NCBI GenBank assembly: GCA_018238545.1
Contig: JABCTC010000005.1
Location: forward strand, 1-64,000
DNA from: Candidatus Heimdallarchaeota archaeon
GTDB lineage: Archaea; Asgardarchaeota; Heimdallarchaeia; Heimdallarchaeales; Heimdallarchaeaceae
Length of the DNA stretch: 64,000 nt
Direction of reading: 5' to 3'
In this document: piece after piece, positions 276 to 20,963 of the stretch
Numbering within the stretch: position 1 is the stretch's first letter
Layout: each line of letters starts with the position of its first letter
The notes under the pieces: model-generated
Databases searched by the model: none
What the model was told of the DNA's origin: nothing
The model's input: the letters and a program-made list of their open reading frames with translations, nothing else
Made by a program: the position numbers and the translations under genes

Positions 276-701
276 TTGGTGATACAGTTGAAAACGTTTA
301 ATGACATAGTAAGATTTGAAACAGCTGGAGAGATTGATATTATCGATCTAACTGAAAGATTCAGCAAATGTGTACACAAGTCTGGAATTAATAATGGCAT
401 ATTATCAGCTAATGTTATAGGATCAACTGGAGCATTAACGGCAATAGAATATGAGCACCGCGTACTAGATGATTTTAAACAAATTCTACATAAACTAATT
501 CCAAAAGGGGCAGGATATAAACATGATATTATCGATTCCAATGCTCACTCACATTTACGTGCATCCCTAATTGGACCTAGTCTAGCAATCTCAATTCATG
601 AAGGAATAATGCAATTAGGGACATGGCAACAACCTGTTTTTGTTTGTTTAGATGTTAGACCTAGATCAAGAAAAGTAGCGATAACCATCATTGGGGAATG
701 A
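276..701 (+). CDS. yjbQ: YjbQ/UPF0047 family protein (secondary thiamine-phosphate synthase-like)
   Basis: Motifs STGAL..IEYE, NAHSHLRASLIG and LGTWQ are typical of YjbQ; GTG start. Confidence 0.9.
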   Translation: MVIQLKTFNDIVRFETAGEIDIIDLTERFSKCVHKSGINNGILSANVIGSTGALTAIEYEHRVLDDFKQILHKLIPKGAGYKHDIIDSNAHSHLRASLIGPSLAISIHEGIMQLGTWQQPVFVCLDVRPRSRKVAITIIGE

Positions 702-5560: not shown

Positions 5561-6508
5561 ATGATTACATTCCTTTCAGGAGGAACTGGAACCCCAAAGT
5601 TAATTCAAGGCTTTAGAACTATTTTAAGTGACGAAAATCTATCTGTGATAGTAAATACTGCAGATGATATATGGCTCTCGGGAATCTATATCTCACCAGA
5701 TGTGGATACGATACTCTACTTGTTCAGTGATTTGTTAGATAAAAACAAATTTTGGGGTATAGAAAACGACACATTCAACACTTTGAAGATGTTGCACTTA
5801 CTTGGTTTTCCTTCTTGGTTCAACTTAGGTGATCAAGACCTAGCAATTAATCTTTTTAGAACCCGGATGATACAAAAAGGTGCCTCTCAAGAAAATATTG
5901 TGAAAACTCTTTCAAATCTTCTAAATATTAAATCAACAATTATTCCTTGTACAAATAATCACATAGAGACTCGCATTATCACAGAGAAGAAAGGTGATAT
6001 TCATTTTCAAGAATTCTGGGTTAAATATAAAGCAAAAGTAAACATAAAACAAGTTTACATAAAAAATTTAGAAAGTGCAGAGATTCCGGAATCAGTTAGA
6101 AGTACAATCGAAAAATCTGAATTAATTATAATTGGTCCAAGTAATCCAGTAACAAGCATTGGACCAATAATTCAGATAAGGGAGATTGCAGAATTATTGA
6201 AAGAACATAAAGATAAAACAATCGCTATAAGTCCCCTGATTGGCAATAAACCTGTTAGTGGTCCCACTGAAATGCTAATGAAAGCTGAAGGATTGGAATC
6301 TACTCCAATGGGAATTGCAGAAATCTACAAAGATTATTGTTCATGTTTAATAATTGACAACAAAGATTCAGATATGATTAATCAGATACAAAACAAAACT
6401 GGATTAAAAGTTCTTTCTGAAGAAATTTTGTTTAAAAACACTCAAGATGCGTCTAGACTAGCTTACTCTATTTTGAATTGGAGAGGTCATCATGACAAAT
6501 ACGTTTAA
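5561..6508 (+). CDS. cofD: 2-phospho-L-lactate transferase (F420 biosynthesis)
   Basis: LSGGTGTPKL, VNTADD, ISPDVDT, WFNLGDQD, HFQEFWV, IGPSNPVTSIGPI, PVSGP. Confidence 0.95.
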   Translation: MITFLSGGTGTPKLIQGFRTILSDENLSVIVNTADDIWLSGIYISPDVDTILYLFSDLLDKNKFWGIENDTFNTLKMLHLLGFPSWFNLGDQDLAINLFRTRMIQKGASQENIVKTLSNLLNIKSTIIPCTNNHIETRIITEKKGDIHFQEFWVKYKAKVNIKQVYIKNLESAEIPESVRSTIEKSELIIIGPSNPVTSIGPIIQIREIAELLKEHKDKTIAISPLIGNKPVSGPTEMLMKAEGLESTPMGIAEIYKDYCSCLIIDNKDSDMINQIQNKTGLKVLSEEILFKNTQDASRLAYSILNWRGHHDKYV

Positions 6509-17806: not shown

Positions 17807-18106
17807 ATGGTTGAACAAAGAAATCCCTTAATGGTTTTGATCTTGATAATCATCACATTCGGCATCTATGGTCTAGCGTGGATGGTAAAAACAAAGAATG
17901 AAATGAACGAGTTAGGAGCAGATATTCCAACAGCTTGGTTCATTATTATACCTATCTTGAACCTATAGTGGTTCTGGAAGTACTGTGAAGGTTTTGCAAT
18001 CGCTACACAAAAGATGGAAGCTATTGTACTATTCTTAATCTATCTAATCTTCTCTCCAGCTGCAGTATGGATTGTTCAATCTGGACTAAATGAGAAAGCA
18101 ACATAA
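17807..18106 (+). pseudogene. DUF4234-like small membrane protein with one in-frame TAG (codon 54, 17966-17968)
   Basis: Manual translation MVEQRNPLMVLILIIITFGIYGLAWMVKTKNEMNELGADIPTAWFIIIPILNL*WFWKYCEG...WIVQSGLNEKAT; absent from the ORF track. Confidence 0.8.
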
Positions 18107-18167
18107 TCTCATTTTTCCTAATTTTTTTTTTACTTAGAATTTTTTTCTTTATTTGATTTTGTCTTTC

Positions 18168-18260
18168 CACACACGTTATGAAACTTGGTTAAACTTGCCA
18201 AAGGCGTCTAACCGTCGTTTAAATGGTTCCCCTCACGTGTGTTGAGGGGAAGAGATCGGA
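18168..18260 (-). ncRNA. Putative omegaRNA/reRNA 3' region overlapping the tnpB end
   Basis: 9-bp hairpin ttcccctca-cgtgtgt-tgaggggaa (18227-18251) in the last codons of tnpB, where TnpB guide scaffolds are expected. Confidence 0.45.
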
Positions 18261-20162
18261 AGGAAGGAGAGTACCTTGGAGGGAAGCGATATTATGAGCA
18301 GCGTTATTATGAGTGTTGACGACTTGACCACATTTACCACAAGGGGCAAAATCATATGGACCTGAACCAGGTTGACGGAGAATAGCCCCTCCACAAGTGT
18401 GGTGAATACTGCTGGTATGGTAAGGGTTGACAGTCTCTAAGCAGATATCGTAACCTAACTCAAGTGAAGCCAACCAGACAGCTTTCTTGTAAATGTAAAG
18501 GTTATCAGGCATGGTGTAGATAGCTTTAGCTAACGCTCCTTTAGCTCCAGTAGGGTCAGTTGTCAACTCCTCAATCTTCAGAGTCCGACACCTCTTCTTA
18601 ATCATCACCGCAGCTAAGAAGTGGGGTAAACGACGAGTAATCTCACGAAGTAAACGACTCCGACGTCTATAGACTCTGTTGAGTTCTCCCTTGAGTTTAC
18701 AACTGCCAAGAATGTCGTATTCTTTACGTTTGCGGAGGAAACCGAGGTTGAGCTCTTCTAGGACTTTCTCTAGATGTTTGTAACGTTCAGCCAACTTCAT
18801 CAAATCCTTAGGAACTGAAACGGGGGGGTTAAACGCTACCATAAACTCTCCTAAACGGTTGATGTCTACCCCTATAACTTGCTTCCTCTTTTTAGGAATC
18901 TTAGGGAGGTATGTATGGAGGAGTTTATGAGAGTGGAAACAGTCATGTGTCCCTTCTAAGACCACATCTACAGGGGGTTTGAAACTGGGAGCACTGCCAC
19001 TACTTATTTGGAAAACTTTTATCTCTGCACCATTCTTCAAATACTCTCGTACTTTGGGAGGGAACAAAACTTGAGCTGTTAGTTTCTTCTTCCCCATTTG
19101 TGGAAAGCCTAAGGTGGTAGTTCCATGGTTCTTTACTTGTCTGGTCAAATCTTTTGCATTCCCTTCGCGGGTGATAACATACTCTTTCTTCATTAACAAT
19201 TTAATTGGTAATCTTCCATGTTTTTTACGTTTGAATGGTGGGGGAACAAGTCTGGCTACAGGTAAGCCTTGTAATAACTGAGGGACACTCTGCATGAACT
19301 GGTCAAAGAGTGTGAAAACTACCACTTGCCTTACGGCAGAGAAGAGTTTTCGAGTAGGTTTACCTATAAGTTTGGCTAGTTCCTTAGCTAATTTTTTGAG
19401 ACTTTTCCAACGAGAAGGTTGAAAGCTGTTGATCCACGAGGTGAGAAAAGGTGCAACTACTTGTTGCTCCTTTTTTAAGAGCTGGAGTTTGTTCATGAAC
19501 GCTTGCTGGTTCCTCGTGAGAGTGGGTAGTTGTGAGAAAGTAGTAGTATGGTAAGCTAATGCGTCGTCAATCGCTTGCACCACATCATGTTGCTTGTAAG
19601 TGGGTAAAGCCCCATTGAAGACTAACGCATTGGAGAAATAATAGTTCCTCTGTTTCTTCTTGTTGTAGCTGTCCAGTTGCATTCTAGAACTTGTCAGAAG
19701 ATTAATGATGTATCTTCTCTGTAGTCGCCAATATTTCCCCAGACTGCTTTCAGTATAAGGCGAACGACCAAAGACCATCCACTCCACCAGTTGTTGAGGG
19801 TTCTTATGCAAGAAATTGAGCAATCCCTGCACTTTCTGCTCTTTGTCTATCTTCCCTTTCACTGCTATCTGGAGCCAGTGGTAAGCGCTCTCAGCGATGT
19901 TAGGATTCTTCCCCACCGCTTTCCCTACTTGGCGAACAAAGAAGCGTTCTTTGGGGTTAGAACGATAGAGGTCTAAAGCTTTTTTGACCACATCTTGACC
20001 GAGAAGGTCGTGTTGTCTCTCTTCTAACCTTCGTACTCGTCGGTTAATTTCTTCTCGTTGAGATGGTGAGACACACTTCAGCGCTACCTGATAACTCCTC
20101 ATCACCTTGTCTAAGTTAATAGGGGGAGAAGTTTTAGAGGTACTTGCTGCTTGTGTGCCCAT
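18219..20162 (-). CDS. tnpB: Large (647 aa) TnpB/Cas12-like RuvC protein
   Basis: RuvC-I VIGVDIN, RuvC-II LKIEEL, VNPYHTS, Zn finger HxxC...CxxC, RuvC-III-like NTHNNAAHNI; long N-terminal extension. Confidence 0.85.
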   Translation of the reverse strand: MGTQAASTSKTSPPINLDKVMRSYQVALKCVSPSQREEINRRVRRLEERQHDLLGQDVVKKALDLYRSNPKERFFVRQVGKAVGKNPNIAESAYHWLQIAVKGKIDKEQKVQGLLNFLHKNPQQLVEWMVFGRSPYTESSLGKYWRLQRRYIINLLTSSRMQLDSYNKKKQRNYYFSNALVFNGALPTYKQHDVVQAIDDALAYHTTTFSQLPTLTRNQQAFMNKLQLLKKEQQVVAPFLTSWINSFQPSRWKSLKKLAKELAKLIGKPTRKLFSAVRQVVVFTLFDQFMQSVPQLLQGLPVARLVPPPFKRKKHGRLPIKLLMKKEYVITREGNAKDLTRQVKNHGTTTLGFPQMGKKKLTAQVLFPPKVREYLKNGAEIKVFQISSGSAPSFKPPVDVVLEGTHDCFHSHKLLHTYLPKIPKKRKQVIGVDINRLGEFMVAFNPPVSVPKDLMKLAERYKHLEKVLEELNLGFLRKRKEYDILGSCKLKGELNRVYRRRSRLLREITRRLPHFLAAVMIKKRCRTLKIEELTTDPTGAKGALAKAIYTMPDNLYIYKKAVWLASLELGYDICLETVNPYHTSSIHHTCGGAILRQPGSGPYDFAPCGKCGQVVNTHNNAAHNIASLQGTLLPSDLFPSTHVRGTI

Positions 20163-20214
20163 CTTCTACTCGTACGTATAATCCTTAAATTGCTATTTAA
20201 ACCCGAGAAAAACC

Positions 20215-20814
20215 TCAATTGTCTGGTGGTGCTTTTCCTCTCCTCTGTCTGTGCAACCTCCCTGCAAAAGAGGTGACGAGAGCGATCATATCTTCTACCA
20301 GTTTGTTCTCCGCTGCTTTCTCTTCTCGTTGATATATGGGGATAACTTTCGTGTCAAAAGTTTGGCAGAATTAGTTGATCACCTTCGTTCCAAACCTCGC
20401 TATCCTATCTCTATATGTACAAATGACAGCAAAAGGCTGCTGCGTTGCTACTGCTTTCAGAAGTGAGTGTAAACCTTTTCTCTGGTCATTCATCCCCGAA
20501 GCAATATCAGTAAAGATCCTTCCCACTTTCCACCCTTGTTGGTGAGCAAAAGACCGTAGATGTTCTTGCTGGGTCTCCAGTTCTTTCTACTGTTTTGCCC
20601 CACTTACTCTCGCGTATCCCAGCACCATCTGGTTGTGCTGAGGGTTGTCTTCCCCCTCTTGTTCTTCTTCTCCTAACATCTGGGAGAGTTTGTATCTCCT
20701 GTGCCCTCCTCTTGTCCTCCCATAAGGGAGTATTTTCTCTTCCCTCTCCCACCTTCTCATAGTACTCGCAGATACTCCTTGTATGGATGCTGCTTTGCCA
20801 ATTCTTACCAACAT
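20215..20814 (-). pseudogene. tnpA: IS607 TnpA serine recombinase (MerR-HTH plus resolvase), interrupted by two in-frame stops
   Basis: GVSASTMRRWE..RTRGGHRRY, GYARVS, DIASG, YRDRIARFG and LVEDMIALVTSFAGRL are all in one frame; TAG at 20587-20589, TAA at 20371-20373. Confidence 0.92.
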
Positions 20815-20963
20815 AGTTCTGCTTTTGTTGAATCTTCAAAAATTCTTTTACTTCTTTTGGCAAGATTGAGCACTATTTTCTTCAGCAGTTGTCAACAGTA
20901 TTTAAGACAGAATAGTCCAATAATATCATAATGGTTTTTACTAATAAATAGGAGAGTATAATA

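Follow-up and report, generated by a model that had tools for sequence, protein, structure and literature searches.

A large IS607 TnpB of Heimdallarchaeaceae with an invariant RuvC-III histidine is a likely RNA-guided nuclease of vacated insertion sites

We analysed a 64,000-nucleotide stretch of Candidatus Heimdallarchaeota DNA (the window), in which an IS607 element occupies positions 20894-18169 of the minus strand and carries a tnpB gene (18219-20162, minus strand) for a 647-aa product. Judged from sequence comparisons, this TnpB is fairly likely to be a D433-E531-H618 nuclease of an active IS607 family of Heimdallarchaeaceae, cutting the sites that the element has vacated. Insertion by the family's serine recombinase takes place immediately behind RCYGT (ACTGT in this case), and the (Y)GT core recurs at the right end, which also encodes a conserved, predicted three-part RNA of about 85 nt that ends in a pseudoknot and is followed by variable flank. 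The first-pass annotation had proposed a large, distinct lineage of OMEGA-type effectors carried by IS607, and this the analysis supports. The features discussed are collected in Table 1.

The boundaries of the element can be read from its relatives. Three congeneric genomes (G010, G021 and G002) carry an empty allele of the same site, in which the left flank and ACTGT run directly into the right flank; ACTGT is therefore host sequence, and the element is 20894-18169. The exact empty junction was found in these congeneric genomes and not in the metagenome contigs. When left ends in the genome were located by an independent internal motif, 14 of 14 started at RCYGT (background 0.0019 per nt), and the final trinucleotide was identical in target and right end for 19 of 20 elements, as TGT-TGT or CGT-CGT. 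As expected of IS607, a short core is common to target and right end, terminal inverted repeats and target duplication are absent, and a TnpA with a MerR-type HTH and a resolvase domain lies upstream of tnpB, though it is broken in the window copy. The crossover core is GT, possibly YGT, and not the GG dinucleotide found in most IS607 members (PMC13565253); the core is a variable feature, and GG is not obligatory. The subterminal motif of the left end is inverted relative to a motif in the right end (18186-18202), and the two are probably TnpA binding sites.

The family appears to be mobile in this genome. We found 27 right ends, all ending at the equivalent of 18169 and all with different flanks, together with MITE-type non-autonomous derivatives of about 340-400 bp that have the left and right ends of the family. 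The internal sequence of the roughly 400-bp type has no match to the window element, and many of its copies lie at contig ends. The window tnpA is interrupted by nonsense codons at 20587-20589 and 20371-20373, and the element depends for movement on TnpA provided in trans, which might come, for instance, from contig C71 of the same genome, where an intact, 83%-identical tnpA lies; the copy on C102 is intact too. Among the loci examined, the tnpB ORF is intact in 39 of 40 (one is short), whereas about 5 of 24 have a full-length, open tnpA. Since the TATA-box-like motif upstream of tnpB is conserved among family members, we infer that it is tnpB's own promoter; a sigma-70 promoter scan was set aside as not applicable to archaea. 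Beside the right flank, a small membrane-protein gene (17807-18106, plus strand) has an internal TAG at codon 54, which looks like a recent nonsense mutation or a sequencing error, because G010, G021 and G002 differ there (apparently a Tyr codon).

Table 1. Features of the IS607 element and related loci (window coordinates unless a genome, locus or residue is named; G000 is the window genome).
Feature	Position	Strand	Basis or remark
ACTGT, host target motif and predicted TAM; crossover core is its final GT/TGT, found again at right end	20895..20899	-	empty alleles
IS607 left end	20815..20894	-	subterminal motif 20856-20872 within
tnpA serine recombinase pseudogene, MerR-HTH + resolvase	20215..20814	-	NF033518 IS607 transposase matches both pieces
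TATA-box-like motif, ~35 nt upstream of tnpB	20194..20201	-	conserved among family members
RuvC-I D433, motif GVDIN, with invariant N435	18864..18866	-	both 121/121 close homologues
RuvC-II E531, motif KIEEL	18570..18572	-	116/117 homologues covering the site
RuvC-III H618 replacing Asp, motif NTHNNAAHNI	18309..18311	-	113/113 covering homologues
tnpB domains	residues: WED strand 20-29; helical block 33-305; WED 320-404; RuvC/finger 429-627	-	AlphaFold model
Predicted omega-RNA scaffold / right end, ~81-87 nt	18169..18255	-	third-codon-position conservation, folding, covariation
Scaffold parts	hairpin 18249-18229; second stem ~18221-18183	-	prediction
7-bp pseudoknot	loop 18241-18235 with tail 18176-18170	-	covariation
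Predicted guide (host right flank)	18149..18168	-	conservation stops sharply at 18169 in 27 copies
Non-autonomous elements	G000: C21:11427-11830, C43:96165-96560, C90:3734-4130, C51:3046-3381		
tRNA-Cys cassette of the window genome	G000:C68:51090-52427 and C49:57100-63122 (L116, L118, L137, L156)		transposase-free TnpB + scaffold + D-arm-antisense guide
tRNA-Cys gene	G000:C68:51090-51163 (genus alleles: L119-L136)		D-loop hypervariable in genus
Further solo cassettes, fixed guides	tRNA-Asn L073, L076, L079, L084; tRNA-Leu L069, L070, L072; tRNA-Pro L074; tRNA-Ser L063		
Other solo cassettes with fixed guides	L077, L083; L090		

The 647-aa protein is barely detected by sequence profiles (PF07282, E 3e-5; the NF040570 TnpB profile gives 22.8 bits, far under the NCBIfam cut-off of 100), and its identities to canonical TnpB, Cas12 and Fanzor proteins are 13-18%. 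With an HMM of 86 homologues, the top PDB sequence match was CnCas12f1 (8hr5_A, E 1e-8). H618 aligns without gaps to the RuvC-III Asp in the NADYNAA motif of that solved Cas12f, and so occupies the RuvC-III Asp position. With D433 in GVDIN and E531 in KIEEL, the initial description of a 647-aa ORF with intact RuvC-I and RuvC-II and a His at the RuvC-III Asp is borne out. The zinc finger does begin with HxxC, as had also been noted: the site is H587-x-x-C590 / C608-x-x-C611, and all four ligands are invariant in the family.

An AlphaFold model (pLDDT 86) has the WED-REC-RuvC-zinc finger fold of TnpB / OMEGA proteins, with D-E-H instead of the D-E-D triad. In a structure search with this model, the TnpB/Cas12f fold spanned residues 18-633 (Z 12-13); AsCas12f (8dzj; Z 13.3, rmsd 5.0, 358 aligned), ISFba1 TnpB (Z 12.6) and 8h1j TnpB (Z 12.1) were essentially tied as full-length matches, and the RuvC part alone best matched ISFba1 TnpB (PDB 8iaz; Z 14.1, rmsd 4.7, 198 aligned). 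The additional 200-250 or so residues had been read as 200 or more extra helical residues at the N-terminus. They form an enlarged REC lobe instead, because the first WED strand precedes the helical block. A search of the Atlas with the REC region gave low-overlap matches only, to small TnpB N-terminal fragments (Aq_aa04, MJ0013 and SSO2105_N). A link to the origin of Fanzor2 is not supported. The pro-Fanzor signature consists of DPG at RuvC-I, a Glu six residues before the first CxxC and an Asp after the second (PMC10711439). Here RuvC-I reads DIN, E531 lies in the canonical strand 56 residues before the finger, and the third residue is His, so that the signature motifs are absent and Fanzor2 ancestry is unsupported.

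Is the histidine a private decay of this copy? Among 121 close homologues (40-97% identity, the named ones from Heimdallarchaeota), every one of the 113 that cover the site has His. Its codon is split evenly in 40 coding sequences (CAT 20, CAC 20), in which dN/dS against the window copy is 0.09-0.18 for the whole gene and 0.06-0.14, an equal constraint, for the REC lobe alone. The invariance and the synonymous codon turnover exclude private decay, the outcome that would have undone the first-pass proposal. A profile search of 50%-identity representatives (E below 1e-10) widened the family to 175 proteins, among them full-length ones of about 600 to 1,784 aa. The H618 column of 124 aligned distant rows holds 102 His, about 6 Gln and 1 Asp, the remainder being gaps or misaligned fragments; several distant members have Gln at this position, or Asp replacing E531. 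The mean column identity of the clade is 27%, and D, E, H and N are fixed throughout it; A621, three positions after H618, is invariant in the family.

Named distant members come from Odinarchaeota, Promethearchaeota, Thorarchaeota and Heimdallarchaeota, all of them Asgard archaea. The family profile matches 40 of 250 genomes of the phylum and 18 of 18 of the genus; no relative was found in the viral contigs searched. One 1,047-aa member sits behind an IS607-type resolvase. Giant relatives of 1,200-1,800 aa (P0183 at L094, P0175, P0187, P0157, and P0164 at L095), at least one of them from Odinarchaeota, have the D-E-H RuvC at the C-terminus. In a quick tree, IS607-type and tRNA-linked members formed one clade (support 100) and the IS607-type members a subclade of it (support 100); the tree does not give the order of events, and its rows L045, L075, L081 and L090 were wrongly picked ORFs and were disregarded.

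An Asp-to-His change at RuvC-III is not new as a class. Six large TnpB branches with altered RuvC-III have been catalogued, and in the largest, RIIIr-4, His is conserved across the clade as it is here (PMC10691335). RIIIr-4 has no zinc finger, and some of its members are MazE/RHH-linked, whereas the window family keeps the finger and is IS607- or tRNA-linked; since the finger is kept, it is not RIIIr-4 as defined. It could be the archaeal branch Ser-6 or RIIIr-6 of that catalogue. Our literature search found no account of the Asgard clade, or of the sizes, target, RNA and tRNA-linked branches that go with it.

The RNA was delimited by conservation and covariation. Third-codon-position conservation rises abruptly at 18255, reaching 0.76-1.0 only from there onwards, and the non-autonomous copies have only the last ~86 nt in common with the right part of the element. 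This stretch folds into two stems (z -3.0), and the 7 nt just ahead of the terminal base can pair with the complementary loop of the first hairpin. Of the cells of this pseudoknot in 32 diverse members, 94.6% are paired, and five of the seven pairs show two-sided changes; relatedness inflates these counts, yet two-sided changes are seen in several sub-branches. None of 500 shuffles reached the overall score, and slid registers were only 32-54% paired. TnpB and Cas12 RNAs typically have a pseudoknot beside the guide, and the predicted RNA has the structured right end, with a pseudoknot beside a variable guide, of TnpB / OMEGA systems. The RNA had first been placed at ~18168-18350; an RNA of 180 nt is unsupported, as conservation starts near 18255. 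The resulting scaffold of about 85 nt is short for TnpB, and it has no match in Rfam.

As the initial reading had it, no CRISPR-like array lies nearby: a simple repeat-spacer scan found none in the window or the assembly, from which arrays may be missing. Nor were array-like repeats found downstream of four larger relatives. The window TnpB has the same WED/REC/RuvC/zinc finger fold as Cas12f (8dzj, 8hr5) and the mid-size Cas12 proteins (Cas12p, Cas12l, Cas12j), and its size and short RNA resemble those of mid-size Cas12. In contrast to type V systems, in which a CRISPR array is the source of guides, no array or cas genes were found here, and the guide would come from the transposon flank.

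We propose that TnpB, made from its own promoter, would bind the right-end RNA with the first 16-20 nt of the flank as guide, read ACTGT as TAM and cut the empty or vacated allele, and that repair from the occupied copy would restore or spread the element. The only perfect match of the guide in the genome is its own locus, and the occupied locus would be spared because the bases before the match read TGTGT, not ACTGT. His618 may act as the third metal ligand, like His143 of Thermus thermophilus RuvC, with the invariant Asn435 perhaps helping; we take the D363-type Asp of TnpB to be equivalent to this His143 and not to Asp146. The steps of binding, TAM reading and cutting are drawn from established IS607 biology; in the IS607 IStron, the TnpA target is the TnpB TAM and the scaffold ends in the core (10.1101/2023.11.20.567912), a geometry that the window element shares except that its core is GT, not GG. 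ACTGT as a TAM is derived from TnpA insertion sites, not from TnpB.

The organization is that of IS607 TnpB-omegaRNA systems such as CboIStron TnpB, ISXfa1 and ISFba1, in which a serine-recombinase tnpA is followed by tnpB, the target lies at the left junction with its core repeated at the right, the scaffold forms the right end and the guide comes from the flank. The window TnpB differs from IS607 TnpBs in length (647 versus ~400 aa), its REC lobe of ~270 residues, D-E-H in place of D-E-D and its HxxC/CxxC finger, and the element differs in its RCYGT target with a (Y)GT instead of a GG core and in its ~85-nt scaffold.

Several lines of evidence favour cutting: the invariance of D, E, H and N with codon turnover at H618 and purifying selection; the retention of tnpB while tnpA decays; the empty sites, the 27 right ends with distinct flanks, the MITEs, the intact tnpA copies and the pseudoknot covariation; and, indirectly, the mismatches of gene-bearing tRNA-Cys cassettes to their own tRNA (see below). 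Active RuvC resolvases naturally have a His at the equivalent position, as a third ligand (PMC3592405), and conserved rearranged RuvC sites are expected to stay active (PMC10691335). Other observations count against it: RuvC resolvases with His have a fourth acidic residue three positions on, where this family has A621, and the guides of some sister cassettes are perfect or nearly perfect matches to their own tRNA gene, with a non-matching TAM as the sole possible protection. A screen of 59 orthologues reports activity for a RuvC-II-rearranged member, and its text states none for a RuvC-III-rearranged one (PMC10278001). Our literature search found no reported demonstration of DNA cutting by a TnpB with a RuvC-III His.

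The same absence of a fourth acidic ligand would suit an enzyme whose D-E-H site makes it a nickase, a slow or Mn2+-dependent cutter, or a nuclease of another substrate (ssDNA, RNA, or its own omega-RNA during processing). Such activity would suffice to bias retention or homing without frank double-strand breaks. A changed substrate specificity has been suggested for rearranged sites (PMC10691335), and the Gln or Asp replacements in several distant members and the tolerance of near-self guides in some sister cassettes point the same way. We nevertheless regard this reading as unlikely, given that the TAM-core-guide geometry is exactly that of double-strand-cutting IS607 TnpBs and that no sequence feature demands another substrate.

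Less likely still is a nuclease-dead, RNA-guided DNA binder, TldR- or Cas12k/m-like, which would protect the element in one of several ways: it could prevent excision or renewed insertion, recruit TnpA, or repress transcription where the guide finds a match. The canonical carboxylate is lost, and the REC lobe is enlarged, as it is in the binding-only Cas12m and Cas12k. Like TldRs, the protein is TnpB-derived with a non-canonical RuvC residue and its own putative promoter, tnpA is frequently lost, and sister branches have fixed tRNA-directed guides. In TldRs, however, the RuvC site decays progressively and the guides address host promoters (10.64898/2026.09.22.753285), whereas here the three catalytic positions and N435 are fixed across the divergent clade, the gene lies inside a mobile IS, and the guide differs at every insertion and is not aimed at promoters; nor do tRNA-Cys guides follow the host's own allele. 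We found neither a decayed triad, nor a conserved promoter guide, nor a location outside a mobile IS, and the earlier suggestion of an absent, TldR-like nuclease loses its footing accordingly. A passenger gene without current RNA-guided function, in which the His survives as a frozen accident, as the dead tnpA of the window copy might hint, is very improbable, and appears largely refuted by invariance, codon turnover and pseudoknot covariation, along with purifying selection and a multi-phylum-level spread within Asgard archaea.

Sister members at about 40% identity lack tnpA and have the same scaffold, with guides antisense to adjoining tRNA genes: the tRNA-Cys D-arm, the tRNA-Asn T-arm, tRNA-Leu, tRNA-Pro and tRNA-Ser. 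The tRNA-Cys cassette region of the window genome looks like an integrated island, although no integrase was recognised among its ORFs. About 5 kb away lies a 46-nt duplicate of the 3' part of tRNA-Cys, and past this duplicate come another scaffold and a guide that differs from the first. The D-loop GG is lost in 9 of 19 tRNA-Cys alleles of the genus, tRNA-Cys is the only one of 28 detected tRNAs of the window genome without it, and mean pairwise differences over six genomes are 12.7 for tRNA-Cys versus 3.7 for tRNA-Thr. Alleles of tRNA-Asn vary mostly in the acceptor and T stems.

In their D-loop core, the guides of the tRNA-Cys cassettes correspond more often to an allele of another genome than to their own. 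The 6-nt D-loop core is identical to another genome's allele in 9 of 17 guides (6 distinct cores) and to the own allele in 1 of 17; column shuffles expect 3.8 matches where 9 were seen (P ~0.001, with kin not independent). Within guide positions 1-12, every gene-bearing tRNA-Cys cassette differs from its own tRNA at three or more positions. Only in G001 does a guide match its own tRNA almost perfectly, and that genome (88% complete) yielded no Cys-type gene. This pattern fits a harmful, allele-discriminating enzyme. It may also reflect drift of an old tRNA copy: the mean mismatch to the own allele, about 5.4 of 16, roughly equals that to the average other allele, and certain tRNA-Ser (L063), tRNA-Leu (L069) and tRNA-Pro (L074) cassettes match their own genes perfectly or nearly so, though beside non-RCYGT sequence. 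RCCGN-like sequence beside tRNA protospacers is no independent proof that TnpB reads this TAM, because the original TnpA insertion would explain it. A tRNA-Cys-like match to the Heimdall D-arm/anticodon pattern lies at 6220-6251 of viral contig L157; as this was the only viral contig matched, a viral target of the tRNA guides is unsupported in the contigs searched.

In a tentative extension, which we would sooner doubt than assert, Asgard archaea at large would have D-E-H RNA-guided nucleases of 600-1,800 aa with an RNA of ~85 nt, Cas12-sized but without CRISPR, whose tRNA-linked branches act as allele drives. The transposase-free branches would cut competing tRNA alleles and push tRNA-Cys into escape variants that lack even the otherwise conserved D-loop GG, and guides would be renewed to match the escape alleles. 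A likeness exists in SegB, a free-standing homing endonuclease of phage T4 (PMC13565253): in both, a nuclease gene beside tRNA genes could favour the inheritance of its own tRNA allele. The sister cassettes differ in being RNA-guided and chromosomal, and their cutting and homing are only predicted.

What is added here to the known class of RuvC-III-His proteins (PMC10691335) is a proven target site, a pseudoknot and a tRNA-Cys sister cassette with guides matching other genomes' alleles. DNA cutting by TnpBs of this kind was predicted in 2023. The empty alleles and the covariation define the predicted TAM (ACTGT), the scaffold (~18255-18169) and the natural target, which makes cutting by a His-TnpB directly testable at this locus. 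A large protein with a very short RNA represents the shift from RNA to protein that is thought to underlie Cas12, and here that shift is seen outside CRISPR, among the closest archaeal relatives of eukaryotes. Should the tRNA-linked sisters prove to cut, tRNA sequences would be shaped by a natural RNA-guided drive.
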